A stretch of DNA of 64,000 nt from a bacterium (GTDB taxonomy: Bacteria > Elusimicrobiota > Elusimicrobia > UBA1565 > UBA9628). The notes below the pieces were generated by a model that was not told the origin of the DNA, did no database searches, and was given only the letters and a program-made list of their open reading frames with translations. Location of the stretch: the NCBI GenBank assembly GCA_021822495.1, contig JAKAQO010000005.1, forward strand, positions 42,548 through 106,547. Direction: 5' to 3'. Shown here piece by piece: positions 8,609 to 53,433 of this stretch; position 1 is the first letter of the stretch; every line of letters begins with the position of its first letter. The position numbers and the translations under genes were made by a program.

Positions 8609-8649
8609 CAAACCCTAAGTCTTGTGTCCCCAGAATTTCAGAATTCCCA

Positions 8650-32233: not shown

Positions 32234-32260
32234 AAAAGGGGACTGTCCCCTTTTTTAGTT
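32233..32260. terminator. REP (core 32238-32250) between convergent genes
   Basis: taAAAAAGGGGACTGTCCCCTTTTTT directly follows the TAA. Confidence 0.55.
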
Positions 32261-33214: not shown

Positions 33215-33273
33215 GACTTTTTCTTTTTGATTTCCTCTCTGAACGCCTTATTCTATGCAAAACCCCGCGAAAG

Positions 33274-33651: not shown

Positions 33652-33653
33652 CG

Positions 33654-34346
33654 CTATTTTTTCCTCCGCTGGATGACATTGGCGCTGTCCAACTCCCAGA
33701 CATAACCAATGCCGTGAACGGTCTTGATATAGAAGCCTGATTCCCCCAGCTTTTTACGCAGGGCCTCGATATGTTTGTCAACGGTCGAGGCTTGAACGCT
33801 ATCGGAGTCAGAACGAATCATCTGAAGGAGAGTTCTTCTTTCCAAGGCAACCCCGGGGCGTTCCAGGATAAACGCGAGGAGATCAAACTCCGTTTTCGTC
33901 AAATCGAGGGGTTTTTGATTTAAAACCGCAATTCGCCCCAGGCGGTCGATTTCGATTTTTCCGTCTTGAGATTTCAGCGTTCCAACAGCTTCCGGTTTAA
34001 CGAAGCGTCGAAACACCGCCTCAAGCTTAGCCGACAAAAGCTCTCCCGGCATATCCGGAGAAACCACGTCATCGGCCCCGGCGTTTAAAAGTTCGATGAG
34101 GCGCGCCGCATTTTGAAGACGGGAAGAAACTAAAAGAGAAAGCCGTGTTTCTTTCTCCCGAATAAGGTTTAAGCTTTGGGCATCGGGCAAAATTGATTCG
34201 AAGATAATGACGGTTCCCGGGGGCTTCGGCAAAAGGGCCAAAGCGCTTTTAAAATCCGTGCTTCTTAAAACTTTCCAGCCCCGGAGTAAAAATGCCTCCT
34301 CCCAGTTTTTTCCCAGCAATTCCGGCCCCGCGATTAGGATTTCCAT
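33654..34346 (-). CDS. OmpR-family winged-helix regulator with a degenerate (pseudo-)receiver domain
   Basis: The C-terminal trans_reg_C domain is intact (LTKTEFDLLAFILERPG...HGIGYVWE). In the N-terminal receiver, the acidic pocket is replaced (ILIAGPE instead of DD), the phospho-acceptor position is Glu (IIFESILPD), and the conserved Lys is absent. Confidence 0.55.
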   Translation of the reverse strand: MEILIAGPELLGKNWEEAFLLRGWKVLRSTDFKSALALLPKPPGTVIIFESILPDAQSLNLIREKETRLSLLVSSRLQNAARLIELLNAGADDVVSPDMPGELLSAKLEAVFRRFVKPEAVGTLKSQDGKIEIDRLGRIAVLNQKPLDLTKTEFDLLAFILERPGVALERRTLLQMIRSDSDSVQASTVDKHIEALRKKLGESGFYIKTVHGIGYVWELDSANVIQRRKK

Positions 34347-40500: not shown

Positions 40501-42159
40501 TCATACCCCTTTATCTCGGGAACCGGCATCATTCCCTTTTCGCCGGGAATCACCATCAGCACTATTCCCATCCGGCTTCTGGTCGCGGTAGACGTTTCAA
40601 CCGGAGCCAATTATCTCAACAATGATTTTGGAATCGGAATTTCAACTCCCGCCAATATCTCAATCAACGCGCCCAATTTTGTCGTTCCCTCAACCACCAC
40701 ATTCCCGGCCGATTCAAGTATTATTCCCATTACGAAAGCCCCGGATGTCATGAGCGTTTTCCCGACTTCCTTGATGGATGTCAACGGCGTCGTTCAAGGC
40801 CAAAACGCGCCGGCGGCGAAACTGAGTTTAGTCACCCAGCACAGTTCCGTGACCTGGACGACGATTTCCGTTCAAAGAAGCGGCACCCTGCCGGATTCGG
40901 GAGTTGATTCCGTCAATATTTATGACGACGTAGATCAAAATGGTGTTCTTGACTCTTCGGATGTCCTAGTGGGAAGCGCGCCCTTTGTTTCCGGAACAGC
41001 CAATATTTCTTTCTCCACCGCGCAACTGGTCAGCCCCGCAGGAGCGGATTATCTCATTACGCTTCAAATTGACCCTAACGCTACTCCGGGAGACACCATT
41101 GGAATTTCCTTGTCCGGCGTGTCCAACTTTACCGTGTTGCCCCCGGACACCGTCTCGGGTTCAAGCCTTCCGTTTAACTCGGCCTTAGGGCCGGTTCTCA
41201 ATATTAAAACTCCCACTCAACCCATCGTCACTTTCCCGAACGGAGATTATTCCAGCTCCTTTGATTCGGTCGGCTTTATCTGGTATTCAACGGTCGCCGT
41301 CGGTTCCATTTCCAGCGCGGCCTATGCCGTGGGAACGACTCCCGGGGGAACCGATATCGCGCCGTATACCGCCATTCCTTTTGCGGCGTCTAGTTTCACC
41401 GCGACCAATCTTCTCCTCTCTAACGGGGCCACTTATTATGTCTCGGTGGAAGCCACCTCTAACTACGGCTTTACCAGCCCGCCGGGAATCAGCCCCGGGT
41501 TTTTGGTTGATTTAATCACCCCAGGGTCGCCGACCAATCTCAGCGCCAATGTCGGCGTAAGCTCGATTTATCTGACCTGGGATCCGGGAACAGTCGGGCC
41601 CTCAGGCGCTTCGGGATATCTTCTCGAATATTCAGACGTCGAACATCCGACCTGGTATAACGCCAAGACCGGAGCGGTCACCGCCCTGGCCGCCGGCCCC
41701 CATGGAACTCTTTCGGCCAATTTCATTCCCTCTTCGCCGTTTTTGTTCAACAATCCGCCGCAAGGAACCCTTCTTTTCCGCGTTAGTTTAGTCAACGGCG
41801 CGGGGGTTCAAAGCGCCCCGTCCAATTCGATCAGGGTTCTCTTTGGAACGCAGTCAAACGCTGGAATATCGAACGTCTCATCCTATCCCAATCCCTTTAA
41901 CTCAAATTCCGGAGTCGCGACTATCGTCTACACCTTGGATACTCCGGGGAATGTCTCCATTCAAATCTACAGCGTCTTTGGGAGTCTCGTCAAAAGCCTC
42001 TCTTATTCTGGTGGAAGCGTGGGGGGGCAAGCCGGCGTCAATACCGTGACCTGGGACGGAACCGACTCAGGCGGACGCAAAGTCTCCAAGGGCATCTACA
42101 TCGCCGTCCTCAAAGCCAATGGTATGAGCGTCCAATACAAAATCGGGGTCAATCACTGA
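34525..42159 (+). CDS. Giant (2544 aa) secreted repeat-rich surface protein with Asp-box/BNR-like beta-propeller repeats, FN3/Ig-like modules and a T9SS-type C-terminal sorting domain
   Basis: A signal peptide is present. There are three super-repeats of about 560 aa, each with TTYYWR(V/I), S-x-(D/N)-G-x-(S/T)-W propeller repeats and the Cys motif CGG.SPC.AT.Q..FT.SD. Five repeats of about 125 aa follow (..IYRD.NGTG..). An FN3 domain is next (IYLTWDPG), and the protein ends in a C-terminal domain of type PNPFN..ATI.Y.L....V.I.IY...G.LV..L..G..WDG.D..G..V..GIY. Confidence 0.75.
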   Translation: MRKKNICELVSEGAQQKRSQKLGRWGLSLTLLIFLAAQAKAQVQNIISTPTYPANGSYFNLQNQTPNFNWFGPSTTTIQLATSPVYNLQVGTDPTFAAGLVINVQIAAVIPSTGLPNAYGSYLSGTSLTNNTTYYWRVYATDSSGGESMSWSTFSFVTDFAPDSNLSASYSGTLNSLGQTTPENQFVSLSNGATSQLSVSASFSGIAVSSSAVPLTGDSASFTQGTSGYGVLYSTNSGTTWEDYSSLGINVPAAGGGATIWNLAVFNGFLYAGLSNGSIIHTNNGTSWNTDYTGSNYGIGGFTIYKNTLYASNHDGSNAYMVSITNAGTVNRATVFNSGAGVSKPVVLNNTLFVEASYTGIPAGDPGAGNAGGGIFASQDGIHWVQTSGVGVCSDNFDQLFTFNGELYANVQSGGFGCSGLFVSPDGVNWTTIDNQSVPGTVNTATVFNGKLYIGVNNGGSNPLLYSSTNGQSWSADNGTLTQPSLGGSVNDLNVVNGKLYAGISTTTARIYVTEDGNNWFPSISGGTGQTGAGAPVYFNGNFYAAAGPDIITISPFSASLPGSNGEPSGTLSAVSPQLAASTTTTTCGGVSPCNATNQVIFTASDMAGNTLMSGPYAILVDTEVGVAISTPSYPGTPTVGQSPPGTVPYVNVQPNFDWIGPSTGVASALQQPANFFLEVSSNDPTFSPSNIVISTSTPVVVYSTNVPTANGAYLSPYVLGNNTTYYWRIYIKDNLGGTSPTSPTYKFITDFAQPAVSTSSFQSINAQSSLLPENQFNDLASGVTAQITVQDTNSGLAVSTSALSFAGDGHDDPPITSGFGIIYSTNAGFSWIVQSTSAEANNGSAVGTGIRSLAVFNGDIYAGDYSGHVYYSADGNTWSAGTPGTNPIQSLSVFNGILYAGDGGGYIYSSSNGSTWSTTNGGSAVGAGILAMTVFNGQLYAGDNFARVFVMDASGNWHNVDGGTVGTSSIESLAAFNGQLYAGDYYGNIYASTNGSSWNSLGTIGNSGSLIETMAVFNGKLYAGDSNGFIHFSANGASWTTSNNGSAVGSGITALTVFNGQLYAVDALGYVHISADGVHWNSIKVATQGTGLAGFNGNLYVGDYYGAVYRAIPLAATLSGSDGTTASQTLSANNLNLVQSTTTATCGGTSPCSATDQIIFTASDLAGNVVESGPYAILVDTTVAPAISTPSYPLNGAYLNFNPNFNWTGPSTSIVSGLLAPSYYQLEVSSNDPTFATVFVNISTPIPPVNTGLSTDNGAYISTYTFANLTTYYWRVRTIDGFGGTSPWSTTFSFTTDFSSPTAVGGSFATLNSLGGLVPENQVTVLQSGVTAQINITDIGSGFSAFNSSNYSVRYSTNAGLSWISEPFSALAFTGSIGQTSTQTFTAYGLNLAASTNSYVCGGISPCGATNQVEFTFSDQALNFSTAGPFAVIVDTHSTDVLVSTANVAPLGIPQNTSVAFIRLTLNSLTGTAPWTGLTVQRLGSGTDADVQNVAIYRDNAGTGIFSPSDTQITQNAVFSGGIVNLTMTNPESITTSTKTYFLVYTAAPGALVGDGLAAEITSTASFTFSNGYQMSSAQTTIYPLISSTATVVDGPNYLYITPASQAPNDAPPGTANIEMLSLKAYTNTGTSTLSKIVFHLLGTGASNDISSISIYRDSNGTGVYAPNDSLVTSGSDSFFNGVSTVAFTTTIASETVTTSPIYYFVLISLSPNAPLGDTLGISISTTSDVELIDVLDTTTFTTSPAASSLLTIEYINTLNVQGVNQIPSSLLQGQQYAILKASFTVSTGETSFNGITITRIGLGHDSDVSAVRVWQDPAPPETFNPATFLQLSSGTFVNGNAQLNFPLQTLSAGTTYVYYVTYNISPTALQGDTLGGRITSNLDISDTNPGTTIVGNFSINSATSPVVPTTAGLFVSAQNVAPSDLLQGATNQQMLNLTMDTTQYSVLLGALTFNSLGTASSSDISRVEVYQDLVGNGILNTSTDPLLSAVSYPFISGTGIIPFSPGITISTIPIRLLVAVDVSTGANYLNNDFGIGISTPANISINAPNFVVPSTTTFPADSSIIPITKAPDVMSVFPTSLMDVNGVVQGQNAPAAKLSLVTQHSSVTWTTISVQRSGTLPDSGVDSVNIYDDVDQNGVLDSSDVLVGSAPFVSGTANISFSTAQLVSPAGADYLITLQIDPNATPGDTIGISLSGVSNFTVLPPDTVSGSSLPFNSALGPVLNIKTPTQPIVTFPNGDYSSSFDSVGFIWYSTVAVGSISSAAYAVGTTPGGTDIAPYTAIPFAASSFTATNLLLSNGATYYVSVEATSNYGFTSPPGISPGFLVDLITPGSPTNLSANVGVSSIYLTWDPGTVGPSGASGYLLEYSDVEHPTWYNAKTGAVTALAAGPHGTLSANFIPSSPFLFNNPPQGTLLFRVSLVNGAGVQSAPSNSIRVLFGTQSNAGISNVSSYPNPFNSNSGVATIVYTLDTPGNVSIQIYSVFGSLVKSLSYSGGSVGGQAGVNTVTWDGTDSGGRKVSKGIYIAVLKANGMSVQYKIGVNH

Positions 42160-42827
42160 TATGAAAAAAAGGGGACAGTCCCCTTTTTGGGGGAAATCTC
42201 GAAAAAGGGGACTGTCCCCTTTTTTGGCCGCCCGATGCGGCGCTCAAGCCCCATTTCCTCTCTTATCTCTTGCTCACGCTCACCACCATACACTATTTCT
42301 TTATAAAAATAAGCCCTCTCCTGGGCAGAATTTCCAAGAGATAAATAACCTGGGCTTTCCTCCAGAAAAGGGGACTGTCCCCTTTTTCCTGTATAGAATC
42401 CATAGCTGGACCAAGAGTAATCTTCCGGTTTTTTCACGATGGCTGCGCGAACGGGGTTTAACTCAATATAACGGCCACAGAAAAGCAGGCTTCTCTCCGT
42501 TGGCAACAAGACGCTTTTATAACGCCCCTGCCAGAGATGACCCACCAGAGAATTTTTTCCTCGGAAATAATCGGAATATCCCTGCAAAAGTCTTTGCATC
42601 GCCTTACCCAGGTCTTCCGCTTTTTGAACTTGAGCTAAGAAATGAACATGATTTGGCATTAGGACATAATGATACAGGTGAAAAGGATTTTTTTTCTTCG
42701 CCCATTTCAGAAGAGCTAAGAATTTTTCATAATCTAAATCTTCCTGAAATATCTTCTGTCGGTTATTCCCACGAGCCATCAGATGATAAAACATTCCCTC
42801 AAGCACATTTCTCCTCTGTCTTGGCAT
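42153..42827 (-). CDS. IS200/IS605-family Y1 tyrosine transposase of the REP-associated type (RAYT)
   Basis: The HuH motif is MPNHVHFL and the catalytic Tyr context is GHLWQGRYKS. One REP (42370-42382) is inserted in frame, giving GKRGQSPF. The ORF has no stop until it has read through the downstream REP doublet (..KKGTVPFFEISPKKGTVPFF). Confidence 0.7.
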   Translation of the reverse strand: MPRQRRNVLEGMFYHLMARGNNRQKIFQEDLDYEKFLALLKWAKKKNPFHLYHYVLMPNHVHFLAQVQKAEDLGKAMQRLLQGYSDYFRGKNSLVGHLWQGRYKSVLLPTERSLLFCGRYIELNPVRAAIVKKPEDYSWSSYGFYTGKRGQSPFLEESPGYLSLGNSAQERAYFYKEIVYGGEREQEIREEMGLERRIGRPKKGTVPFFEISPKKGTVPFFSYQ

Positions 42828-42960
42828 ATCACCCCTCCTTTCCGCCTAGATTCTCTGCTATATTTCATACGGCAGAAACACAAAAAAAGTTCCCTCAAAA
42901 AAAGGGACAGTCCCTTTCTCGGTTAAAATTCCTAAAAAAAGGGACTGTCCCTTTTTTCTT
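42161..42960. mobile_element. RAYT-REPIN unit: RAYT gene flanked by inverted REP doublets (42165-42235 and 42897-42960)
   Basis: Downstream doublet cores are at 42171-42183 and 42207-42219. Upstream doublet cores are at 42904-42914 and 42941-42951. This is the classical genomic context of REP-associated tyrosine transposases. Confidence 0.6.
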
Positions 42961-44485
42961 ATTTCTACTTCTCTCTTCCATATCGGCTTCCGCAGCCAGC
43001 AGCTTCTATGCCGGTTCTCCTAACGAAATTTTCCAGTTCGGAGCTGACGCCAGGGCCATGGGAATGGGAAACGCTTATACCGCAATCGCTGGCGGCGCGT
43101 CTTCTCTTTACTACAACCCCGCAGGACTCGGCCTTCTCAATGGTCCCGATATCAGCGCCATGCAGGCCAGTCTCATTGGCGGCGCGGCTTATGAAAATTT
43201 ATCCTATGCCCAGAATTTTTCAAAGATGCCTGGAGCTTGGGGAGTTGAAGCCCTCAACATGGGCGTTGGAGGGGCCGAGCAAAGGGACTCTCAAAATAAT
43301 TTGACCGGAAGTTTTGGCTTTCAAGAAACCGGATATGGAGCGGGATTTGGATTGCGAAATGTCGTCATTCCAGGTTTATCATTGGGAGGATCTTTCCAAG
43401 GGCTCAGCCGAAGCTTAGGTGGAAGTTCTTCCGACATGCTCTATGGAGCCAATCTCGGCGCCCAATACGGCCCTTTTTTTGATAATATGGTGACCGCCGG
43501 ACTCGTTCTCCAAAACGGCTTTAACGGAGCGCAAAACACCTTTGACCGGTTGCCTACGGTTCTACGCGCGGGCCTGGCCGTCACTCCCATCGACAATCTT
43601 CTTATCTCCGCGGACTATGGAAACGACGGAGATTATGGAATAGGCGCGGAATATAGAATATGGATGTTCGCCCTGCGAGCCGGATATATGCCGGAAGGCC
43701 TCACCTTTGGCGCTGGAATCTATTATAAATCAATGGAAGCCGATGTCGCGATGGTCAATGATCCGATTTTTGGAATGGGGGAGCGGTTTTCGATCAACTA
43801 CCGATTCGCGGGGAAGAAAAAAGAAAAGCCTCTCCAGACTTATACCAACAGTTATCTTGACGCCGCGAAAAAAGAACTTAATATTCGCAATTACCTCAGC
43901 GCGCAACTGGCTCTTGAAGAAGCGATGGGGATTGATCCAACCCAGATTCCCCAAATATGGAAGGAAAAACTCAAACTTCTTCAAGCGTTCAATCAATATT
44001 TAGATCTCAAGAATCGACCGGATGAGGTTAAGACTCTTCTCGCTAATGATCCGGCGGCGATACTCGCCCAAAAATCGATTTTTTCTTATTTAGAGGGGCG
44101 TGACGGCGATGCGATGATTTGGGCCTCCGTGGCCGCTGGAACGGCTCATAAATCCATGCCCTATATTGACTTTATCAAGACAATGGCTTATCTTACGAGT
44201 ATGAAGGTTTCGGAAGGAGATTTGTTGCCGCCGGCCGAATATGTTTCCAAAAAAATGGAGACTGCTCTTCAGGACATTTATCAAAAACGCTTCGCGAATT
44301 CAGTCAGAGATTGCCAACAGGCCATTGTGGTCAACCCGAAAGAATCTTCCGCCTGGACTCGTCTTGGCAGCGCTTATTTTGCCTGGGGACACAAACAAGA
44401 AGCCAAAAAGGCTTATCAAAAAGCCCTGGAGCTCGATCCCAAGGATGAAAATCTTAAGAAATTCATGGAGATCTATATCAAATGA
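42956..44485 (+). CDS. Outer-membrane beta-barrel protein with a PorV/PorQ-like N-terminal motif and C-terminal TPR; 5' start unresolved
   Basis: The signal-peptide-like segment KKGTVPFFLFLLLSSISASAASS is partly encoded by a REP. It is followed by FGADARAMGMGNAYTAIAGGASSLYYNPAGLG and Gly-rich beta-strands, with TPR at the C-terminus. No ATG/GTG/TTG start exists between the REP doublet and this segment. The frame is open back to 42161, antisense to the RAYT gene. Confidence 0.45.
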   Translation, partial: FLFLLLSSISASAASSFYAGSPNEIFQFGADARAMGMGNAYTAIAGGASSLYYNPAGLGLLNGPDISAMQASLIGGAAYENLSYAQNFSKMPGAWGVEALNMGVGGAEQRDSQNNLTGSFGFQETGYGAGFGLRNVVIPGLSLGGSFQGLSRSLGGSSSDMLYGANLGAQYGPFFDNMVTAGLVLQNGFNGAQNTFDRLPTVLRAGLAVTPIDNLLISADYGNDGDYGIGAEYRIWMFALRAGYMPEGLTFGAGIYYKSMEADVAMVNDPIFGMGERFSINYRFAGKKKEKPLQTYTNSYLDAAKKELNIRNYLSAQLALEEAMGIDPTQIPQIWKEKLKLLQAFNQYLDLKNRPDEVKTLLANDPAAILAQKSIFSYLEGRDGDAMIWASVAAGTAHKSMPYIDFIKTMAYLTSMKVSEGDLLPPAEYVSKKMETALQDIYQKRFANSVRDCQQAIVVNPKESSAWTRLGSAYFAWGHKQEAKKAYQKALELDPKDENLKKFMEIYIK

Positions 44486-44552
44486 AAAAAAGGGGACAGT
44501 CCCCTTTTGGGGACATTTCTTTAAAAAAGGGGACAGTCCCCTTTTTTCTTTG
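44483..44552. repeat. REP doublet in direct orientation (cores 44492-44504 and 44529-44541, both GGGGACAGTCCCC)
   Basis: Both central bases are A, whereas the other doublets are inverted (A...T). The doublet follows the stop of the outer-membrane protein gene. Confidence 0.55.
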
Positions 44553-44561
44553 GAGGTTGTC

Positions 44562-47075
44562 ATGGACATATTAATGATTATTTTTATCCCAAGTCTTTTT
44601 CTTGTGTTGGGAGCCCTGATGTTTATCGTCAGCCGGGTCATGGAGTTTTCACAATCCAACCGTTATTTCGCAAAACAACGAGGAAACAGTCTTATGTTTA
44701 CACGTTTCATGACTCAAATCGCCATAGCGAAAAGCCAACTGGGAAAAAGGGCCCAGGAACTGGAAGCCCTCTCCATGCGTCTTCAAATGAACAATGAAGA
44801 GCTCGCGAGGCTCAACAATCTCAAGATGAAATTTCTTTCCATGGCGGTTCATGATATTCGAAACCCCTTGACCGCCATTACCGGCTATAGCGATATCCTG
44901 TCTCGCAACAAAAATATTGGTCCGAAAGAACAAGTCCTCTCGAAAATGATCTTGACCGCGACGCGGCAAATCAACCACCTCATGGGCGACTTGACCGATC
45001 TGGCCGTCATCGAAGCGGGAAAATTCAAGATGGAAATGGCGCCCTTTGATCTGGCCGGACTCATCCAAGAAGTCGGCGCGACGCTGGCTCCTGGAGCCTC
45101 TAACAAAGGCGTCATTCTTTCTGTTCTGGAACCTCCGTCGGGAATCATCATCACCGCCGACCGCTACCGCATTTGGCGCGTTTTGACGAATCTTTTAGGC
45201 AACGCCGTCAAATTTACTCCCTCGGGCGGCCGCGTTGAACTGAGAGCCGAAGTCGCGGCGGGAATGGCCATGATTTCCGTTCAAGATAATGGTCCCGGAA
45301 TTCATCCCACCGAACGCCGAAAAATTTTTGAAAAATTCTACCAGTCAAAGCACATCAAGGATGAAAAGGCCCGCAAGGGCGGCTGGGGGCTGGGACTCGC
45401 CATCGCCCAAGAAATTGTTCAAGCTCACGGAGGGGAAATTGGGGTTGACAGCCGCGGTCTCGGGCATGGATCCACTTTTTGGGTTCGCATTCCTCTTAAA
45501 GCTCGGCGCCCCATTCGCTCTAGCCCCATGCGCCTTTCTCTTGCTTTAATCGGGTTTTTAGCTCTTTCTTTTATTCCGAAAAAAACTGGGGCTCAAACTG
45601 TTCCCTTTCTTGAAAAATCCAAGTTCGAGAAATCCCTAGAAACCAAGGTGGACGGGGTTCTCCTCAATATCCTGGGGCCCAATCGGGCCAAGGTCATCAT
45701 CAACGCGACCTTAAACTTTACCAAGACGGAAAGTTTTCAAACCGAAGGCGCAAGCGTCACAACCACAAAAACCTCGGGGCTACCTTATCTCTGGCAAGAG
45801 CCCAGCAAAACGGCGCAGCCCGAAGAACTTCTTCCTGGAGTGCCGCTTGATTCCGGAGGCCCTGCTCTTCCCATGCCACCGCCGTCAATTAAGGGATATA
45901 AAAAAGAAGATTCCTTTCCCGCCGAATTTATCAAGAGGTTGGATGTCACTCTCATTTTGGACAATTCCGTTAAGGGAAATCGCAGCGCCGAAATCGGCAA
46001 AATTACATCCGACCTTCTCAATCTCAATCCCAAACGGGGGGATTCTTTAACCGTGGTCCACACCGAGTTTTCTCCTATTTGGAAAACCGTCTGGTATTCT
46101 CCGGCCACTGCGGGCATGCTTCTTAAATATATTTTGACCGGGTTTCTCTTTTTCATGGCCTTGATCGTCATCGCTATCGGATTCATAAAAATCGCCAACG
46201 CCATGCGCATGATGGCTAACGCCCAAGCTCAGCAAATTTCCATGGAAATGAAGGGACTCGATGGCGAGGGGGGAAGCGGACCAGGAGGGCTTTTAGGACA
46301 CAATACGCTCATGATTGGGGATCAAAAATCAGGAGAAAACGTCCCTGAGAATAAAAATGAACCCGTCATGTTCGACGTAGGGATGGATCAGGTAGAAACC
46401 CTGGCTCAAATGCTTCTCCCCGAACCGGCCAATAACATTGCCATTGTCGCGTCCCGCCTAACCCCGGATGTTTCGAAAAGACTCATTGAGGCCCTTCCCC
46501 CGGAACTGGCGACGCAAGTCATCAGCCAACTCGCTCGTCCGCGCTTTATCGATCCGGAAATTATCGTCAACTTAAAGGAAGAGCTGGAACGGCGTCTTTC
46601 CGGCGCGGTGGGAGGCGTTCATTATCTCTCGGAACTCATGTCGGCCGCCAGCCAAAAGAGGCGCCATGAGATGCTCGAAGCCGTTCGCGCGCAAAACCCG
46701 AACCTCGCGGAAGAACTTAGAAAAAGAGTCTTTTTCATCGAGGATCTTTCAAAGCTGAGCCAACAGGAATGGTCATACCTCTTATCCTTGGTCACCTATC
46801 AAGAATGGAGTGCGGCCCTTCATGAGGGACCCCAAGTGGTCGTCGAAGCCATTAAGCAAAATCTATCGGAAAAAGCCTGGGGGGTTCTTAGCGAAATGAT
46901 TGAAACGGCTTCTCCCAGCATAGAACAAGCGGAAATAGCGCAAGACAAAATCGGTCAAAGCGTCTCGGAACTCATCAAGGAACAGAGAATCAAGACCATC
47001 GCACCACAATTGGGACTTCAGGTTCATGAATCTCCAATTGAGGAAGAAAAAGGCGCAGAAAGCAACAAAAAGTAA
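44562..47075 (+). CDS. Multidomain fusion of a membrane histidine kinase (HisKA + HATPase_c), a FliF/SctJ-like periplasmic ring-building segment with a TM anchor, and a FliG (rotor/switch protein) middle + C-terminal domain
   Basis: GGAGG lies 6 nt upstream of the ATG at 44562. The kinase motifs are the H-box AVHDIRNPLTAITGYSDIL, the N-box LLGNAVKFT, and the G-boxes DNGPGI and GWGLGLAIA. There is no stop after the kinase. A signal/TM-like segment MRLSLALIGFLALSF (ATG 45528) is followed by about 200 periplasmic residues, then the TM segment LLKYILTGFLFFMALIVIAIGF. The FliG-like region is LPPELATQVISQLA...EELERRLSG.VGG...NPNLAEELRKRVFFIEDLSKLS..E..YLLS.V....AL......V.EAIKQNLSEKAW.VL.E.....SIEQAEIAQ. 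Alternatively these are two genes, with the second starting at 45528. Confidence 0.6.
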   Translation: MDILMIIFIPSLFLVLGALMFIVSRVMEFSQSNRYFAKQRGNSLMFTRFMTQIAIAKSQLGKRAQELEALSMRLQMNNEELARLNNLKMKFLSMAVHDIRNPLTAITGYSDILSRNKNIGPKEQVLSKMILTATRQINHLMGDLTDLAVIEAGKFKMEMAPFDLAGLIQEVGATLAPGASNKGVILSVLEPPSGIIITADRYRIWRVLTNLLGNAVKFTPSGGRVELRAEVAAGMAMISVQDNGPGIHPTERRKIFEKFYQSKHIKDEKARKGGWGLGLAIAQEIVQAHGGEIGVDSRGLGHGSTFWVRIPLKARRPIRSSPMRLSLALIGFLALSFIPKKTGAQTVPFLEKSKFEKSLETKVDGVLLNILGPNRAKVIINATLNFTKTESFQTEGASVTTTKTSGLPYLWQEPSKTAQPEELLPGVPLDSGGPALPMPPPSIKGYKKEDSFPAEFIKRLDVTLILDNSVKGNRSAEIGKITSDLLNLNPKRGDSLTVVHTEFSPIWKTVWYSPATAGMLLKYILTGFLFFMALIVIAIGFIKIANAMRMMANAQAQQISMEMKGLDGEGGSGPGGLLGHNTLMIGDQKSGENVPENKNEPVMFDVGMDQVETLAQMLLPEPANNIAIVASRLTPDVSKRLIEALPPELATQVISQLARPRFIDPEIIVNLKEELERRLSGAVGGVHYLSELMSAASQKRRHEMLEAVRAQNPNLAEELRKRVFFIEDLSKLSQQEWSYLLSLVTYQEWSAALHEGPQVVVEAIKQNLSEKAWGVLSEMIETASPSIEQAEIAQDKIGQSVSELIKEQRIKTIAPQLGLQVHESPIEEEKGAESNKK

Positions 47076-47085
47076 AAGAAGAAAA

Positions 47086-47210
47086 AAAAGGGGACAGTCC
47101 CCTTTTCCTCATAAACTTAAGGTCGGGGACAGTGCCGTCCCTAAGAATTATGAAGAAGAGGCACAGTCCCCTTTTTTTCTTCGTCATTTCTTCATGATTA
47201 AATGCCGCTT
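47086..47210. repeat. Composite 120-bp REP-containing leader element (copy 2), near-identical to 34373-34497
   Basis: About 115 bp are near-identical to copy 1, including the variant core GGGGACAGTGCCGTCCC (47125-47141). Confidence 0.6.
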
Positions 47211-47228
47211 TTGTTCTACCCTATAACT

Positions 47229-48173
47229 ATGAGTGAAAGTCCAAAAGGTTCTATCTTTTCCTCATTAAGGGCATTAGAGGAAGTTCTGGAAGAAACTCCC
47301 ACTGCAATACCTACTCCGCAAAACGTTTCTCCCGCTCCTGTTCAAGCCGCACCACCGCCACCCACTCCCACGCCCATGAGTTCAACGCCGCCCGTTGATT
47401 CTTCAAGCGAAGCTCTCAAATCCGTGGAAGCAAAGATTGAAAAAATCGATCAAAAAATTCAGGAATTAGGAAATCTCCCAATCTCGCCAAATCTTGATCG
47501 CATTGAAGCTCTTGAGAAAAACCTACAACAGATGCAGGAGCGGGCCATCCAGGCAGAAGTTGCGCTCAGAGAACGAGAAAAATCCCAAGAAGCCGCAAGA
47601 CGTGAGACAGAATCTCTTCTTCAAAATCTAGCATCCCAAAGACGACTCGAAGAATCCGACAGGCAAATGAAGGAGAACCTGTCCTACTGCCGGCACCGCA
47701 TCGAGGAATTAGAAGAGCGGCAAGCCTCTCTCAAAATTTCAGATACGCAACAGTCGGAGCATGAGTTTAAATCGCTCTTAAAAAATTTTATGGAACAAAT
47801 CGACCTTAAAACAGCCCCGATTTTAACGTCTCTCCTTGAACTCAAGAAAGAGAATCAAAACCGCGAAAAAGAGAGTCTCAATATGGAAAAAAGGATAGGC
47901 CATCTTGAAACCAAAACCGCTAATAAAAGCCAAGTTGACGCTCTGCGCGAAGACTTCCTCCATTTAAAACAGTCCGTGGAAAAAATTAATTTGGAAACAT
48001 CGGAAAAGCTCGATAAAATAACCGCGGCATTAAGCCTATTGTCGCTTAAACTCCACAAAGATAAGGCAACAGAAGAATTAATCATTCTCGATAAAGAGTT
48101 TCAAAAAATACACTCTATTCTCAACGCCAATATTTCCAACTCTCCCAAACAAACAGGAATAGCCCCTGATTGA
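47229..48173 (+). CDS. Pro-rich N-terminus plus long coiled-coil protein (function unknown; placed in the motor-like cluster)
   Basis: A PAPVQAAPPPPTPTP segment is followed by heptad-rich sequence with abundant E/K/L/Q. The start at 47229 is the second in-frame Met; the ORF tracker starts at 47202. Confidence 0.4.
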   Translation: MSESPKGSIFSSLRALEEVLEETPTAIPTPQNVSPAPVQAAPPPPTPTPMSSTPPVDSSSEALKSVEAKIEKIDQKIQELGNLPISPNLDRIEALEKNLQQMQERAIQAEVALREREKSQEAARRETESLLQNLASQRRLEESDRQMKENLSYCRHRIEELEERQASLKISDTQQSEHEFKSLLKNFMEQIDLKTAPILTSLLELKKENQNREKESLNMEKRIGHLETKTANKSQVDALREDFLHLKQSVEKINLETSEKLDKITAALSLLSLKLHKDKATEELIILDKEFQKIHSILNANISNSPKQTGIAPD

Positions 48174-48211
48174 TTTGGAATTCTCTTTTCTTTCCTTATA
48201 TAATAGGCATC

Positions 48212-48949
48212 ATGGAACTGACATCGATTATCGGCCTTGGAGCAATTTTAACTCTAACCGCAATTGGGCTCGCCACGGGAGGGCTCCCGGCGGTTTTCAT
48301 CAACTGGCACGGAATCGGCATCGTCCTGGGCGGCACTTTTTGCGCCTTGATGATTAACACTCCCCTGGATATCTTGCTCAGAACTGGAGCGGCTATAACA
48401 GATTTAGTTTCAGCCGATCCTTACGTCGATCGCATCGCCCTTGTGGACGCGATCATGGCCTTGGCTCAAGAGGTTCAATCCCGAGGAATCAGCGCCTTTA
48501 ACAACGTCAACAAAACGGTTGCCGCTGGGTATCTCGCTTATGCCGCTCAAATTGCCGTCGAATACAATAATCCTGAAACCCTCCGGCAGGTCCTGGAAAA
48601 TGAGATTATTCAAAACTCCGATTTACAAAATGAAGCGGTCAACGTTTTTAGAACCGCAGGAATTTTGGCGCCGATGTTTGGGCTTTTAGGGACCTTGATC
48701 GGAATTGTCGAAGTTCTGCGCCAAATCGCCAACCCCGCTCAAGTAGGCTCCGCCATGGCAGTCGCCATTACTACCGCTTTTTATGGTATTGCGACGGCTA
48801 ACGTTTTTTGCGTGCCAATAGCTGGGAAATTGAGAATCAGGTATTGGAGAGAAACGCAGGCTAAAACCATGGTTTTAGAAGGCGTCTATGAAATTCTTCA
48901 ACGAACGCCCACCGTCATCATCTCCAGGAAACTAAAATCTTATTTATGA
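48212..48949 (+). CDS. motA: MotA/PomA-type proton-channel stator subunit
   Basis: Four TM helices with a large cytoplasmic loop. The TM3-TM4 core is APMFGLLGTLIGIVEVL...AMAVAITTAFYGIATAN. I chose the ATG at 48212; the ORF tracker's TTG is at 48170. Confidence 0.65.
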   Translation: MELTSIIGLGAILTLTAIGLATGGLPAVFINWHGIGIVLGGTFCALMINTPLDILLRTGAAITDLVSADPYVDRIALVDAIMALAQEVQSRGISAFNNVNKTVAAGYLAYAAQIAVEYNNPETLRQVLENEIIQNSDLQNEAVNVFRTAGILAPMFGLLGTLIGIVEVLRQIANPAQVGSAMAVAITTAFYGIATANVFCVPIAGKLRIRYWRETQAKTMVLEGVYEILQRTPTVIISRKLKSYL

Positions 48950-48975
48950 TAAAAAAGGGACAGTCCCCTTTTTCT
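48950..48975. repeat. REP (core GGGACAGTCCCC, 48957-48968) between motA and motB
   Basis: An intra-operon copy, so perhaps an attenuator rather than a full terminator. Confidence 0.5.
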
Positions 48976-48980
48976 TGATT

Positions 48981-49673
48981 ATGAGACGATCACGGCACGA
49001 AGACCTCGAAAATCAACTCGCGAAATCCGCCCAATGGGCTATTACCTACGGCGATTTCATGAGCTATCTCATGATTTTCTTTCTCATCATGTTCTCTTTT
49101 ACGCTCTCCAAATCCGGAGGGAAAACCACGGAAAACGTTAAATATCAGGAATCCTTGATTAAAATCCAGAAAGTCTTTGGGGGAAAAGGAAGCTCCCTGG
49201 ATTACGATCGCCTCATTAAGCGCGAAAAAGAAGAGTCCATGGTGACCCAACTCAAACAGGCTCTGGACAAGAAAGACTTGTCCAAATACGCGAAAATAGA
49301 AACCTGGGATAAAAAAATTCGATTAATTCTCGCTAGCGCGGTTCTTTTCGATTCAGGGCGAGCGACCTTGGCCCCGCGCTCGGAAAAAATTCTGGCCGCC
49401 GTCGCCCAACAGCTTAAGACTTTGGACAACCCCATTCAAATTGAAGGCCATACCGACAACGTGCCAGTTCGCGGCGGACGTTATAAGTCCAACTGGGAAC
49501 TTTCGATGGCGCGGGCTTATTCCGTGCTGGTCTTTTTGGAAAAGCAGGGCATCGCGCCTCAGCGCTTATCCGCGATTGGCTACGGCAAGTATCATCCCAT
49601 TGCCGACAACAACACCGCGGAAGGACGCGCTAAAAATCGTAGAATCGAGATAGATTTATTACGGACAGAATGA
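48981..49673 (+). CDS. motB: MotB-type stator subunit (single TM with a conserved Asp plus an OmpA-like peptidoglycan-binding domain)
   Basis: AITYGDFMSYLMIFFLIMF carries the channel Asp. The C-terminal OmpA-like region is ILASAVLFDSGRATL...IQIEGHTDN...NWELSMARA...NRRIEI. Confidence 0.7.
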   Translation: MRRSRHEDLENQLAKSAQWAITYGDFMSYLMIFFLIMFSFTLSKSGGKTTENVKYQESLIKIQKVFGGKGSSLDYDRLIKREKEESMVTQLKQALDKKDLSKYAKIETWDKKIRLILASAVLFDSGRATLAPRSEKILAAVAQQLKTLDNPIQIEGHTDNVPVRGGRYKSNWELSMARAYSVLVFLEKQGIAPQRLSAIGYGKYHPIADNNTAEGRAKNRRIEIDLLRTE

Positions 49674-49686
49674 GGAGAAATTAAAT

Positions 49687-50706
49687 ATGAAAAAGTCATT
49701 TGCGGTTCTATCTTTGAGCCTAGTTTTGTCGACGCTCGCTTTTTCAGCAGTCTCATCGCAAGCGAATAATTCAACAAGCTCTCCCGCCCAAGGGGCCACG
49801 GTCCCACATCCAAAAATTCCTCAGGATCCTTATCTGACAGCTCTTGACGATATCAAAAGTCCCATTCCCTCGGTTCGCTTAGCAGCCGTTCAAGTCTTGT
49901 CCCAAAACCGCAATCCCGCCTCTATCGCGCCTTTGACAAAAGCCCTTTCCGATAAAAGTCCGGCTGTCTGCGCCGCCGCGATTCACGCCTTGGGCCTTTT
50001 GAGGGTTAAAGCCGTGGCTCCAAAAATCGCGCAACTGCTCGCCACTTCCCCGTCTTCCCAAGTGAGGCAAAATGCGGCCGTCGCCTTGGCTTATCTGGCT
50101 GACCCGGCGGCCATCCCCACTTTAATTTCCGCCATATCCGATTCGCATCAAAGCGTTCGCTATGCGGCAATCAAAACTTTGGGCAGTCTCCACGCCCAGG
50201 CCGCGGTACCCGCCCTCATCAACACGCTCAAAAGTTCCAACGCTAATATTCGAGAGACTGCCGCCGCGGCCTTGGGGCAAATTCAATCTCCTCAAGCCTC
50301 CTCCGCTCTTGCCGGTTTGACGACCAATCCCAACATCCAGGTCCGGGAAGCCGCCGTCATCGCGCTGGGCTCGACCGGAGGCAAGGCCGCTATTTCTCCA
50401 CTTCTCAAGGCGCTTAAAGACGCGAATTTTTCCGTCAGCCTTGACGCAGCGCGTTCTCTTTCAAAACTGGGAAATTTTAAGGGAAAAAGCGTCGCTCTCA
50501 AAGGACTTAGCCAAAAAGATCCCTTTCTTAGGCAAGAAGCCGTTACAATTTTAGGAATGACCGGAGGGAAAAAATCTCTCCGGGCTATTGAAAAGCTCTC
50601 TAAAAAAGAAAAGGATCCCGCGACGATTAGCCTGATTGGCTTTGCCGAAGCCCAGATTAAGGGACGCCTCGGAATCAAACCCGCACCGCAATCGCGTAAG
50701 AAATGA
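49687..50706 (+). CDS. Secreted HEAT/PBS-lyase-like repeat protein
   Basis: A signal peptide is present, followed by about nine repeats of type VR..A..AL....A...L...L.D.... Confidence 0.55.
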   Translation: MKKSFAVLSLSLVLSTLAFSAVSSQANNSTSSPAQGATVPHPKIPQDPYLTALDDIKSPIPSVRLAAVQVLSQNRNPASIAPLTKALSDKSPAVCAAAIHALGLLRVKAVAPKIAQLLATSPSSQVRQNAAVALAYLADPAAIPTLISAISDSHQSVRYAAIKTLGSLHAQAAVPALINTLKSSNANIRETAAAALGQIQSPQASSALAGLTTNPNIQVREAAVIALGSTGGKAAISPLLKALKDANFSVSLDAARSLSKLGNFKGKSVALKGLSQKDPFLRQEAVTILGMTGGKKSLRAIEKLSKKEKDPATISLIGFAEAQIKGRLGIKPAPQSRKK

Positions 50707-52718
50707 GACGCCTCTTTGGCCTTTTCTTTTCGTTGGCCCTGAGTTTCCTTTTTATTTTTCTTTATCGGCCGCCCTTATTTAGAATCCAGGCCAACGATGT
50801 CTTCAATAATTTGGAGAATTCCTGGCAGGATTTTCTTTTTCGCCTTAACAAGGATCATTTAAGACGCGGAGACCCCCGCATTATCATTGCCGCTATTGAT
50901 GACCCGACCCTCCATCAGTACGGATATCCTCTCCCTCGAATAGTGTACGCGAAACTCCTAGATCGTCTTCGCGAACTTAAAGTCAAAACCGTGGCCTTTG
51001 ACGTTCTTTTTCCCGAGCACAGAAAGGGAGATTTTGAATTCGCTCAAGCTCTAGGAAAATTTAAAGAAAACGTTCTCGCTTATGCTTATGATAAAAATAG
51101 TTCCCAACATTTCGTTTTGCCCGCGCCTCCGCTTTATCAAGCCGCAAAAAGTCTTGGGTATGTCAATGTAGGAGATTCCATAGACCCTGATGGGCATATC
51201 CGACAGTTTCAGATTTTTCAATCTTCTTTTAAAAACCCGAAAAAAAATTCCATGGGAGAAGCTCTCTCGGTTCCGACGCTCGCCTATTTTACCGGGCAAC
51301 TCTTTCAAAAGACGACCGGCATCGCCCCAACGGATGCGCATTTCTATCTTAATGTCAGGCCTCCAACTTATGCCAATGATCAGAACGTGTTTTTTTCTTA
51401 TCCCGTTTTTTCCATCGCTAAGATTTTAAACAATAAGCTTCCGCAAAAAGAGAAAGACGCCTTGAAAGGCTCTTTGGTTTTAGTCGGTTCAACCGCTCTT
51501 TCCGCTTTCGATCATTATCCATCTCCCTTTAGCGACGTCAGCCCCGGAGTGGAATATCACGCTAACATTCTGGATAATCTTCTTCATCGCGACTGGATGC
51601 GCTTCTTTTCTCCTTTCTATCAGATTCTCATCATCCTCTTATTTATCTGGATTCCCTTTTTCCTAAGACGCGCGCCAACGCAGTGGGAAACGCTCTCGGT
51701 TTTCGGAGTTTTTCTGGCCTGGACTGGTTTTTGCGAATGGCAATTTCTGAAAGGCGTTCGCGTGGAATTCGTCCTTCCCTCCACAGCTCTTCTAACCTCT
51801 TTTATCGGCGAAACTATCCATCAGGCCTTGACCGAGGGGCGCGAGAAAAAATTCATCAAGAACTTATTCGCTCAATTTGTTTCTCCCGAAGTAGTCGAGG
51901 ATCTCGCAAAGAATCCGGATAAAATCAAGCTAGGGGGAGAGAAAAAAGACATGACGGTTCTTTTTCTCGATATCGCCCATTTTACCAGCATCTCGGAAAA
52001 GATGTCGCCGGAAGAGCTCATCAAATTTCTCAACCGCTATCTTTCGCGTTTAAGCCAGGTCATTCACGATCACGGCGGTGTCGTTGACAAATACATTGGA
52101 GATTCCATCATGGCTTTTTGGAACGCGCCCCTTGAGGTCAAATCCCATCGCGTCAAGGCCTGTCTTGCGGCCCTGTCTCTTCAAGACGCCGTTTTGGAAC
52201 TCAATAAGAACCTTCCTTCAAGCATCCCTCATCCGCCTCAAGTCAGAATTGGAATAAACTCCGGCTTTGTCACCGTGGGCCTCACTGGAAGCGAACACAA
52301 ACTTCAATATACCGTTATCGGAGACGAGGTTAATTTAGCCTCTCGCCTTGAAGGAGCCAATAAGTTCTTCAAATCACAGACGATGATCAGCGAAGCCGTT
52401 TACGCCGAAGCCAAAGCAGAAATTGAAGTCCGGGAAATCGGAATTATCCGCGTTCTGGGTAAGGAAACTCCCATCAAGACTTATCAGATTTTAGCTCGAA
52501 AAGGGGCGTTGTCTCGCGCCTGGAAAACAGCTCTTCCTATCTACAATCAAGCGCTTCAGGATGTCCGCAATAAAGAATACGTCAATGCCATCGCCCTCTT
52601 TGAGACTTTCCTTAAAATTATTCCCAATGATGGGACCGCTTCGTTTTATCTCTCCGCATGTAAAAAAGCTCAAGAGAGCACTCCCTGGGACGGAATTATT
52701 CATTTGACCGCCAAATAA
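50703..52718 (+). CDS. CHASE2-sensor class III adenylate/guanylate cyclase
   Basis: An N-terminal periplasmic CHASE2-like domain is followed by TM helices. The cyclase motifs are TVLFLDIAHFT, YIGDSIMAFWNAP, RIGINSGFVTVG and VIGDEVNLASRLEG. Confidence 0.75.
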   Translation: MRRLFGLFFSLALSFLFIFLYRPPLFRIQANDVFNNLENSWQDFLFRLNKDHLRRGDPRIIIAAIDDPTLHQYGYPLPRIVYAKLLDRLRELKVKTVAFDVLFPEHRKGDFEFAQALGKFKENVLAYAYDKNSSQHFVLPAPPLYQAAKSLGYVNVGDSIDPDGHIRQFQIFQSSFKNPKKNSMGEALSVPTLAYFTGQLFQKTTGIAPTDAHFYLNVRPPTYANDQNVFFSYPVFSIAKILNNKLPQKEKDALKGSLVLVGSTALSAFDHYPSPFSDVSPGVEYHANILDNLLHRDWMRFFSPFYQILIILLFIWIPFFLRRAPTQWETLSVFGVFLAWTGFCEWQFLKGVRVEFVLPSTALLTSFIGETIHQALTEGREKKFIKNLFAQFVSPEVVEDLAKNPDKIKLGGEKKDMTVLFLDIAHFTSISEKMSPEELIKFLNRYLSRLSQVIHDHGGVVDKYIGDSIMAFWNAPLEVKSHRVKACLAALSLQDAVLELNKNLPSSIPHPPQVRIGINSGFVTVGLTGSEHKLQYTVIGDEVNLASRLEGANKFFKSQTMISEAVYAEAKAEIEVREIGIIRVLGKETPIKTYQILARKGALSRAWKTALPIYNQALQDVRNKEYVNAIALFETFLKIIPNDGTASFYLSACKKAQESTPWDGIIHLTAK

Positions 52719-52719: not shown

Positions 52720-53433
52720 ATGATTATATTTTGGCGCCTCTTATTTGGGCATTTATTGGCGGATTTTACGCTCCAAACCAATGCCGTCAATCGCTGGAAA
52801 AGAAAAAATATTTTTGGGATGCTGTTTCACTGCGCCATGCACCCCGTTCTCTACGCGCTTTTAACCTATCCCTATCTTTCCCGTCCCTGGATTGAATGGA
52901 AAAGTTTCAGTCTAAACGGATGGGCTTGCGTAATCATTCTTTTTTTAGTTCATTGGCTTGAGGATGAATGGCGGGTTTTCACTATCTTTAAATACCGCAC
53001 TCCGGACAATACGCTTTACTTTCTCTGGGATCAAGTCATCCACGTCGCGCTGATTTTCGCGGTAGCGCCTCTTTTGGCCTTTTCCAACCCTTCCCAAGGG
53101 TTTATCCCCGAGAAATGGCCTATCCTAGGATGCCTGTTTGTTATCGCGACTCATTTCAGCGCCATTCTGATTTATTTCATCGAACAAGATTTTTTCGGGA
53201 CGCCCTTTCCAGGAACTTTCAAAAAATATTCCCAGATGGCCGAACGCCTGGGGCTTGTCCTTTGTTTTTTCGCGCCTCATGATCTCTGGCCTGTATTAGC
53301 CTCGGCTTGGATCGGAAGCATGGCTTTTCTCCGCATAAAAAAACGCGATCAATTCTCATGGACCAGCTTCTTGATTGGCGCTCCTCTCGCCGGGATTTGC
53401 GGTTTTCTCTCCAGAATCTTGTATTATCATTAG
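52720..53433 (+). CDS. DUF3307-family membrane protein
   Basis: The N-terminal HLLADFTLQ signature is present, with multiple TM helices. Confidence 0.5.
   Translation: MIIFWRLLFGHLLADFTLQTNAVNRWKRKNIFGMLFHCAMHPVLYALLTYPYLSRPWIEWKSFSLNGWACVIILFLVHWLEDEWRVFTIFKYRTPDNTLYFLWDQVIHVALIFAVAPLLAFSNPSQGFIPEKWPILGCLFVIATHFSAILIYFIEQDFFGTPFPGTFKKYSQMAERLGLVLCFFAPHDLWPVLASAWIGSMAFLRIKKRDQFSWTSFLIGAPLAGICGFLSRILYYH

Follow-up and report, generated by a model that had tools for sequence, protein, structure and literature searches.

The presence of FliG and flagellar-type MotAB is usually taken as a sign of flagella, with FliG being the specific partner of flagellar stators. Parts alike in kind to those described below occur in the Agl-Glt machinery of Myxococcus, in which an ion-driven inner-membrane motor is combined with outer-membrane barrels, a TPR protein of the periplasm, an adhesin at the cell surface, and the cytoplasmic coiled-coil scaffold AglZ; its motor is TolQR-like and has no FliG ring. 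Barrel-plus-TPR exporters (Slam of the type XI secretion system (T11SS), BcsC, and PgaA) unite in one polypeptide a periplasmic TPR scaffold and an outer-membrane barrel that handles a surface-bound product. To our knowledge, the Elusimicrobiota lie outside the known range of the type IX secretion system (T9SS). Most free-living members of this phylum encode motAB, flbD, and fliG without structural flagellar genes, in a role termed "enigmatic", and a few have complete flagellar sets (10.1101/2022.07.08.499144). The phylum is also rich in huge proteins of unassigned role (PMC11573180; 10.1101/2023.11.21.568195). Here we analyzed a 64,000-nucleotide stretch from the genome of an uncultured member of the Elusimicrobiota (GenBank assembly GCA_021822495.1, contig JAKAQO010000005.1, positions 42,548 to 106,547; hereafter the window) carrying a gene module in which a histidine kinase-FliF-FliG fusion protein and a MotA/MotB stator are encoded next to a PorV-like outer-membrane barrel and a giant surface protein.

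The module resembles the flagellar basal body in its homologous FliF ring-building motif 3 (RBM3), FliG_M, and FliG_C with the Gly-Gly hinge, in a MotA with four transmembrane (TM) segments, in a MotB with plug, channel Asp, and OmpA domain, and, in one relative, in an flbD gene before motA. Unlike the flagellum, it has no RBM1, RBM2, or FliG_N and no nearby FliM/FliN, export apparatus, rod, hook, or filament. Its FliF and FliG parts form one polypeptide with an altered EHPQR site, the charges of the torque helix and MotA loop are partly replaced, and it has fixed partners in an outer-membrane barrel and a giant surface protein. With the T9SS and gliding machinery of Bacteroidota (GldLM/PorLM, SprB) it shares a giant protein with a type-A C-terminal sorting domain (CTD), a PorV-like barrel of the FadL type, and an ion-driven 5:2 motor, all encoded together, as well as the general plan in which a motor in the inner membrane serves a very large adhesin on the surface. 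Unlike in the T9SS, MotAB would work on a cytoplasmic FliG ring instead of GldLM with a periplasmic shaft, SprA, PorK/N, and PorU are missing, and the barrel has a TPR tail and scores under the PorV family cut-off. The barrel departs from Slam and BcsC in its reversed domain order, its FadL/PorV-type fold, and its rotor-stator partner, and we know of no homology between Agl-Glt and the coiled-coil or outer-membrane parts of the module. The module belongs to neither the flagellum nor the T9SS while borrowing from both, and we consider it a new type of system made from known parts. A literature search, with few subscription journals within reach, returned no account of a FliF-FliG fusion or of its association with a kinase, a PorV-like barrel, or a CTD-bearing giant protein.

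A preliminary description of the window had placed an orphan rotor-stator module, tied to a kinase, at 44562-52718 and had included a HEAT-repeat protein, a CHASE2 cyclase, and a DUF3307 membrane protein in it. All genes it listed exist at their given positions on the + strand, were matched with Pfam and NCBIfam, and had the features described. The orphan rotor-stator and its kinase link stood, while the membership of the cyclase, HEAT, and DUF3307 genes fell. The module boundaries were also drawn wrong, as the most conserved partners, the giant protein and the barrel-TPR protein, lie upstream of 44562 and had been missed. A divergent regulator operon (32852-34346) had been missed as well. The co-directional + strand gene run spans 34.5-53.4 kb of the window.

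Kinase-rotor fusion and flagellar-type stator

The rotor protein was resolved by Pfam into TM1, HisKA, HATPase_c, TM2, a periplasmic segment with a weak YscJ_FliF_C match, TM3, FliG_M (3.1e-10), and FliG_C (6.5e-14), in that order. The open reading frame (ORF) finder began it at 44241 (944 aa), overlapping the upstream gene; translation from the ATG at 44562 yields 837 aa, with the N-terminus MDILMIIF. Its kinase has the H, N, G1, F, and G2 boxes of the HisKA class by sequence and no sensor domain, and is placed between TM1 and TM2 of the ring protein. Homologues of the full-length fusion formed ~70 clusters at 37-90% identity, and all those with a taxonomic name were Elusimicrobiota except for one partial sequence from candidate division NC10. 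Kinase His97, the N, G1, F, and G2 boxes, the FliF-like motif 'GPNRAKVVVDATLDFTR', and the FliG Gly-Gly hinge were invariant in an alignment of 21 fusion homologues, and the hinge was invariant in all three gene layouts defined below.

Sequence and predicted structure agree on the origin of both rotor halves. A phmmer comparison of the fusion with Thermotoga maritima FliG_MC (1lkv) gave 3.5e-21. The structure was predicted for the C-terminal 493 residues (pLDDT, the predicted local distance difference test, 69.7 overall and 75-90 inside domains), and Foldseek matched this part to FliG_MC 1lkv (2.8e-11), FliG_C 1qc7 (root-mean-square deviation (rmsd) 1.6 Å), and FliG_M 4qrm (rmsd 2.3 Å). The predicted RBM3 resembled the Salmonella FliF RBM3/S-ring chains 7cg7_A and 6sd1_A (E ~2e-5, TM-score 0.56 on target), with a short conserved insertion where FliF has its beta-collar. 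The YscJ_FliF_C match, weak in the window, covered the full profile (1-147 of 147) in a relative with layout C.

The fusion lacks large parts of both flagellar proteins. Within the periplasmic segment of ~170 aa, RBM3 was the sole FliF motif matched by Pfam and fold, and neither approach matched RBM1 or RBM2, so that the three-RBM build of FliF is incomplete. FliG_N gave a Pfam match below cut-off that overlapped FliG_M, leaving two of the three FliG domains. In flagella, RBM1 and RBM2 of FliF surround the export gate, and FliG_N docks FliG onto FliF. Here the RBM3 and FliG halves are joined directly by a TM helix and a disordered linker, a covalent link that, in the predicted structure, stands in for FliG_N docking. 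At the FliM-binding EHPQR site, the window protein has PEPAN and the family has E-D-P-E-N. Because RBM1, RBM2, and FliG_N are absent and the FliM-binding site is altered, the predicted protein cannot be an ordinary fliF or fliG product, in agreement with the earlier proposal, and by its domain content and modeled fold it is a minimal ring-plus-torque-domain unit.

The same features make it very improbable that these are the ordinary fliF, fliG, motA, and motB of a flagellated bacterium, split from the rest of the regulon, even though a few Elusimicrobiota genomes do hold complete flagellar sets (10.1101/2022.07.08.499144). In addition, the kinase is fused or adjoining, and the neighbors are a PorV-like barrel (30/30 loci) and usually a giant adhesin-like protein, and never fliM, fliN, flhA, or flgB. 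Our Pfam scan of the window covered all 49 ORFs of at least 150 aa, and smaller genes in part, and none of these 49 ORFs encoded FliM/FliN, FlhA/B, FliI, or rod, hook, or flagellin proteins. FliPQR and other switch, export, rod, hook, or filament genes were likewise missing from the window ORFs of at least 150 aa and from the gene tables of 12 fetched flanks, in which the flagella-linked exceptions were FlbD in L129 and a FlgO/CsgG-type lipoprotein in L001. The scan of the 64 kb thus supports the proposal of a rotor-stator pair outside a flagellar gene context.

MotA and MotB could in principle have been stator proteins of another class, and a grouping with TolQR/ExbBD had been named as a finding that would overturn the flagellar assignment. 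NCBIfam matched MotA to flagellar motor protein PRK09109 at 2.8e-42 and PomA at 3.6e-36 vs 7.6e-6 for TolQ and 9.3e-3 for ExbB. It aligned over its full length, cytoplasmic loop included, with solved MotA/PomA structures (8ucs_C, 8.8e-27), and both channel prolines aligned. In MotB, channel Asp25 sits in 'TYGDFMSY' by our reading of the sequence, and NCBIfam also assigned the protein to MotD/MotB. The defining features of flagellar stators (the 'FIT' class) are given in PMC12505986, and the pair has them: a four-TM MotA with a torque loop, and a MotB with plug, Asp, and OmpA-type domain. The four-TM MotA and the MotB with channel Asp and OmpA domain of the preliminary description were therefore borne out by Pfam, NCBIfam, and alignment to solved stators. 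That a Tol-Pal, ExbBD-TonB, or Zorya system has been mistaken for a flagellar stator has, in our estimate, an almost negligible probability. MotB did match ZorB models in PADLOC (1.4e-23, a generic match) and OmpA-family models generally, but the ZorA models in PADLOC gave no match to MotA, MotB has a plug, FliG is encoded alongside, and no TolA, TonB, ZorC, or ZorD is present. As judged from sequence, the stator is flagellar-type and not of the Tol/Exb or Zorya kind.

The contact surface between stator and rotor has diverged more. We compared residues at the interface positions, in Escherichia coli numbering, across layouts A, B, and C. The MotA R90 position holds Q in the window, Q, H, or R in layout A, R in layout B, and H in layout C, where the next two positions are K and R. 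At the MotA E98 position the window has N, and most members of layouts A and B have K or R, in many cases with D as the next residue; the family shows K/R/Q, and layout C retains E. On the FliG side, the R281 position is K in the window and usually K in layouts A and B, and is lost to G in layout C. Layout C keeps the acidic pair D288/D289, which in the window and in layouts A and B has disappeared or moved by one residue; R297 has likewise disappeared or moved in layouts A and B. From these residues, the MotA-FliG interface appears remodeled in the branch of the window, and torque generation is neither proven nor excluded by them.

Conserved linkage to a barrel and a giant protein

The window was compared with 52 related loci whose rotor proteins are 25-90% identical to its own, by mapping the window proteins onto all ORFs of the relatives with phmmer. 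The loci are not all mutually independent, and counts are given among those reaching far enough. The gene immediately preceding the rotor or kinase gene encoded a barrel-TPR protein in 30/30 loci, and 22/27 had a giant or CTD-bearing gene upstream. MotA was found in 34/34 loci, MotB in 25/25, and a kinase, either fused or adjoining, in 23/36. Upstream homologues of the giant protein were 2250-14454 aa long, and the barrel family (~48 clusters) occurred on the same contigs as the rotor gene.

Three layouts were distinguished. Layout A (the window and L001-L005) has the order giant, barrel-TPR, kinase-FliF-FliG fusion, coiled-coil, MotA, MotB. Layout B (L092, L095, L096, L101, and L108) has barrel-TPR, a separate kinase of ~315 aa, MotA, a FliF-FliG protein of ~545 aa, coiled-coil, and MotB; the genes downstream of it encode isoleucyl-tRNA synthetase (IleRS) and housekeeping functions and were rejected as module parts. 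Layout C (L110-L124, at 25-28% identity, and L129) consists of giant, barrel-TPR, a FliF-FliG protein with a C-terminal TPR domain and no kinase, a long protein without a Pfam family, MotA, and MotB. The histidine kinase is fused in one layout and a separate adjoining gene in another, which upholds the proposed tie between rotor-stator and kinase. Linkage was retained in L110-L124 and in the more distant L128, L129, and L133, and the smallest versions (L133) are made up of barrel-TPR, FliF-FliG, MotA, and MotB. Among the assemblies with the module are GCA_016194745.1, GCA_002412545.1, GCA_040960315.1, and GCA_027319565.1. L129 was attributed to the Elusimicrobiota from the NCBI names of neighboring proteins, and its giant protein has 14454 aa. 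A FliF-FliG profile searched against 1.84 billion representatives recovered 244 proteins at E <= 1e-30; most had 470-670 aa and no kinase. Taken across these sequences, the window module is one copy of a conserved non-flagellar module that looks lineage-wide in Elusimicrobiota.

Two relatives had extra genes near the stator. In L129, an FlbD gene (PF06289, 14592-14810) precedes motA, and an additional OmpA-domain protein (15680-16306) is encoded between motA and motB. In L001, a gene for a FlgO/CsgG-type lipoprotein (16339-17190) directly follows motB, which was not seen in other loci.

The giant protein has a signal-like N-terminus, beta-propeller-like and Ig/fn3 repeats, and a C-terminal sorting domain. 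TIGR04183 (Por_Secre_tail) matched its last ~90 residues at 27.9 bits vs a cut-off of 23, enough to pass as a type-A CTD, and also matched the relatives L003 (34 bits), L005 (33.3), L119 (27), and L002 (23.4). Pfam FlgD_ig matched the C-terminus of the window protein at 27.8 vs a cut-off of 27. Small CTD-only proteins of 89-137 aa are encoded between the giant and barrel genes of L002 (7983-8396), L003 (8166-8435), and L005 (7664-8032), with none in the window; they could be second barrel ligands or split gene ends.

The barrel gene had been listed as a 774-aa ORF from 42161, the first 255 codons of which cross an inserted transposase gene and repeats. Because this ORF over-extends across the transposase and repeat region, the protein is really ~519 aa. 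It matched the NCBIfam PorV/PorQ family NF033709 at 8.7e-20 (71.5 bits, cut-off 90). An AlphaFold model built with 21 homologues (pLDDT 86.7) placed strands at residues 75-293 and helices at 302-518, the latter being ~220 residues of TPR. Its top solved-structure match was PorV in the Flavobacterium SprA translocon (8gl6_F, E 4.6e-11; 6h3i_F), followed by FadL/TodX.

These two proteins raise the possibility of a T9SS-like secretion or assembly machine for the giant protein, with MotAB and the ring replacing PorL/PorM as energy source and the barrel collecting the sorting domain. The type-A sorting domain above cut-off, PorV as the best structural match of the predicted barrel, and the tight adjoining of the genes are all in its favor, as is the known dependence of the T9SS on a 5:2 motor (PMC8986121). 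We nevertheless judge this reading quite unlikely. None of the T9SS core (SprA/Sov, PorK, PorN, PorL/GldL, PorM/GldM, and PorU) was found in the window ORFs of at least 150 aa or the fetched flanks, which leaves the machine without a translocon, PorK/N ring, PorM-like periplasmic shaft, or sortase. Furthermore, a 14-strand FadL-type barrel is too narrow for a folded giant protein, and MotB ends in a wall anchor and not a shaft.

The coiled-coil gene between rotor and stator encodes a protein with no Pfam family, TM segment, or signal peptide. Its N-terminus carries a short conserved motif, which a Pro-rich linker connects to a coiled coil whose length varies. A similarly built gene for 143-1121 aa is located 3' of the rotor gene in all three layouts and is absent in L128 and L133. 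We guess that it may bind to FliG and serve there as a scaffold or spacer.

The genes downstream of MotB showed a different distribution. The HEAT/CHASE2/DUF3307 trio follows MotB in 1/52 loci, L130, a relative of 90% identity that shares the whole neighborhood; it is absent in the other 51, and is missing already in L132 at 46% identity. We rejected the three as module parts and regard them as local neighbors. Since the cyclase trio is limited to one close relative, the cyclic-nucleotide output proposed earlier is not a property of the module. The neighborhood comparison across relatives suggested in the preliminary description thus sustained the rotor, stator, and kinase link and spoke against membership of the cyclase, HEAT, and DUF3307 genes. 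The ATGA overlap between the HEAT and cyclase genes, at 50703-50706, can be read straight from the sequence. Pycsar PycC models matched the cyclase domain at 1.2e-26, perhaps through no more than the general similarity of class III cyclases.

Table 1 Positions of the module genes, their domains, and adjacent genes in the window
Feature	Position	Strand	Evidence
Single-domain response regulator, CheY-like receiver, 120 aa	32852..33214	-	Pfam Response_reg 3.7e-28
Second single-domain response regulator, 125 aa	33274..33651	-	Pfam Response_reg 1.7e-29
OmpR/PhoB-type DNA-binding regulator, degenerate (pseudo-) receiver	33654..34346	-	Pfam Trans_reg_C 2.8e-19
Giant secreted/surface protein, 2544 aa	34525..42159	+	Pfam DUF6242, Ig_Rha78A_N, fn3, FlgD_ig
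T9SS type-A sorting domain (CTD)-like Ig fold, C-terminus of giant protein	41884..42144	+	TIGR04183, FlgD_ig
PorV-like 14-strand outer-membrane barrel with C-terminal periplasmic TPR domain, ~519 aa	42926..44485 (start approximate)	+	NCBIfam, predicted structure
Kinase-rotor fusion, 837 aa	44562..47075	+	Pfam, alignment with homologues
Histidine-kinase core HisKA + HATPase_c	44823..45500	+	Pfam HisKA 5.5e-12, HATPase_c 4.2e-27
Periplasmic FliF RBM3, S-ring-like	45594..46106	+	weak Pfam YscJ_FliF_C, predicted fold
FliG middle and C-terminal (torque) domains, Gly-Gly hinge	46395..46991	+	phmmer, Foldseek
Cytoplasmic coiled-coil protein, E/K/L-rich	47202..48173	+	sequence features
MotA, flagellar-type stator A subunit, 245 aa, four TM and cytoplasmic loop	48212..48949	+	Pfam MotA_ExbB 2.4e-22
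MotB, stator B subunit with plug, channel Asp25, and OmpA-type peptidoglycan-binding domain	48981..49673	+	MotB_plug 1.2e-9, OmpA 1.6e-22
HEAT-repeat protein, six HEAT_2 repeats, N-terminal signal-like sequence	49687..50706	+	Pfam
CHASE2 + Guanylate_cyc (class III cyclase)	50703..52718	+	Pfam
DUF3307 membrane protein	52720..53433	+	Pfam

Possible function of the module

Sequence, structure prediction, and synteny establish what the parts are, which topology they are predicted to have, and that their linkage is conserved. We tentatively propose that together the parts form an ion-driven, most likely proton-driven, envelope device in which the flagellar rotor-stator core is reused to act on the giant surface protein, a reading whose probability we place a little short of even. 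The rotor protein would polymerize into a ring in the manner of FliF RBM3, and wall-anchored MotA5B2 units would use the ion gradient to push on FliG_C and so turn or load the ring. The TPR tail of the barrel could reach across the periplasm and couple to the ring while the barrel grips the giant protein by its sorting domain. The motor may act on the giant protein because the barrel, coupled to the ring, would hold that domain, and it could thereby move, tension, or deploy the protein at the surface. The kinase built into the ring would fire upon ring assembly or a change in load, as with FlgS, FlrB, and FleS of polar flagellates, and the receivers and OmpR-like regulator would set the expression of the costly giant gene from the divergent promoter. 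A stronger form of this idea, which we consider rather doubtful, is that of a third rotary envelope machine beside the flagellum and the T9SS gliding motor, with a MotAB-driven free FliF-FliG ring spinning or moving giant adhesins via the barrel-TPR coupler.

Several observations weigh against such a device. The module has no rod or axial part to carry rotation through the peptidoglycan and no outer-membrane translocon for a protein of 2500-14000 aa. The canonical MotA-FliG interface charges are kept in part only, the giant gene is not always adjoining (L095 and L133), and the PorV family score of the barrel falls below the NCBI cut-off. The pseudo-receiver of the OmpR-like regulator also makes the proposed phosphorelay less certain. 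Rotation, ring formation, and every contact between parts are steps that we infer.

The regulators are encoded in a three-gene operon transcribed divergently from the giant gene. The second receiver keeps the canonical acidic pocket, Asp, Thr, and Lys by our reading of its sequence. In the OmpR-type protein, Pfam gave no Response_reg match, the NCBIfam PhoB model scored 1.5e-24, below its cut-off, and the positions of the DD pair, phospho-Asp, and Lys were, by eye, GP, E, and S. Relatives of this regulator adjoin the module in 6/52 loci by phmmer and in L001-L004 by Pfam, and a Trans_reg_C protein together with a single receiver adjoins it in L001, L003, and L004. In L132, a single receiver stands beside an unannotated 184-aa gene. 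A further 197-aa protein (32255-32848, - strand) is encoded 3' of both receiver genes, apparently in the same operon; with no Pfam family and no PDB sequence match, it was rejected as a CheC-like phosphatase.

Free kinases that depend on a rotor ring offer the closest precedent for the fused one: FlgS, FlrB, and FleS of Campylobacter, Vibrio, and Pseudomonas need the FliF/FliG ring for activity (PMC3760246, PMC7064773). Like the FlgSR/FlrBC/FleSR checkpoint described in these reports, the module is proposed to have a kinase that depends on a FliF/FliG ring and controls transcription of later parts. The checkpoint kinases are free and cytoplasmic, need the type III secretion system (T3SS), and act via a sigma-54 activator; the module kinase, unlike the FlgS type, is membrane-anchored, fused to or adjoining the ring protein, and accompanied by CheY-like receivers and an OmpR-type pseudo-receiver regulator. 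By analogy, the fused kinase most likely answers to ring assembly or load, and the fusion looks like a covalent form of a FlgS-type checkpoint. Such a checkpoint would suit delaying the synthesis of a 2500-14000 aa protein until its base is built.

The kinase also gives rise to an unlikely but plausible alternative, a signaling complex alone, with the FliF-FliG ring and MotAB serving as input to the kinase and performing no mechanical work outside the cell. It could be a gauge of ion-motive force, or a surface-contact sensor in which the giant protein and barrel relay strain, with transcription via the receivers and OmpR-like regulator as output. The sensorless kinase embedded between TM1 and TM2 of the ring protein, the regulators conserved nearby, the degraded torque-helix charges of layouts A and B, the missing rod, and the precedent of kinases that read the FliF/FliG ring are all what such a complex would show. 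However, 13/36 loci, including all of layout C, have no kinase in the searched range and yet keep rotor, stator, barrel, and mostly the giant gene. Because these kinase-less loci retain the rest of the module, signaling is probably not the core function. The stator also retains plug, channel Asp, prolines, and wall anchor; selection therefore appears to maintain regulated ion flow, and hence work.

In whichever role, FliG and MotAB are conserved here in a mostly non-flagellated lineage, stripped of secretion, switch, rod, and filament and tied to T9SS-type parts. If the module is a motor, it would represent a new class of bacterial envelope machine and a natural experiment on the rotor-stator core alone. 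It would also give a first functional context to the "enigmatic" motAB/fliG and to the huge proteins of Elusimicrobiota. In the stronger, rotary form considered above, it would provide non-flagellated members of the phylum with an organelle for surface motility or for handling prey or particles, with a kinase read-out. A rotor and stator without type III export could show a motor core uncoupled from secretion, which bears on flagellum evolution, whether as relic or as reduction. The kinase-rotor fusion could serve in studies of how a ring is sensed by a kinase.

Other genes and repeats in the window

An IS200-like Y1 transposase gene of the type associated with repetitive extragenic palindromic (REP) elements lies between the giant and barrel genes (42153-42827, - strand; Pfam Y1_Tnp 2.9e-14). 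The palindrome GGGGAC[AT]GTCCCC occurs in 22 copies in the window vs 0.08 expected. The copies are flanked by A and T runs, are mostly intergenic and in many cases paired, and are found in most module gaps (e.g., 42171, 42207, 42370, 44492, 44529, 47090, 48956, and 53443). Palindromes and transposase together look like a REP/RAYT (REP-associated tyrosine transposase) system. The segments 42161-42925 and 44241-44561 are 5' over-extensions of ORFs across REP-rich non-coding DNA, in which 'KGTVPFF' and 'GQSPFWG' are translations of REP hairpins. A promoter and terminator scan of the window yielded nothing informative past these hairpins.

Farther upstream, 1657-7302 encodes a TPR Ser/Thr protein kinase (809 aa) followed by two ~530-aa proteins without a Pfam family (4102-5697 and 5719-7302), and 7444-9828 holds two convergent AAA_14 + DUF4143 ATPase genes of 381 and 392 aa.

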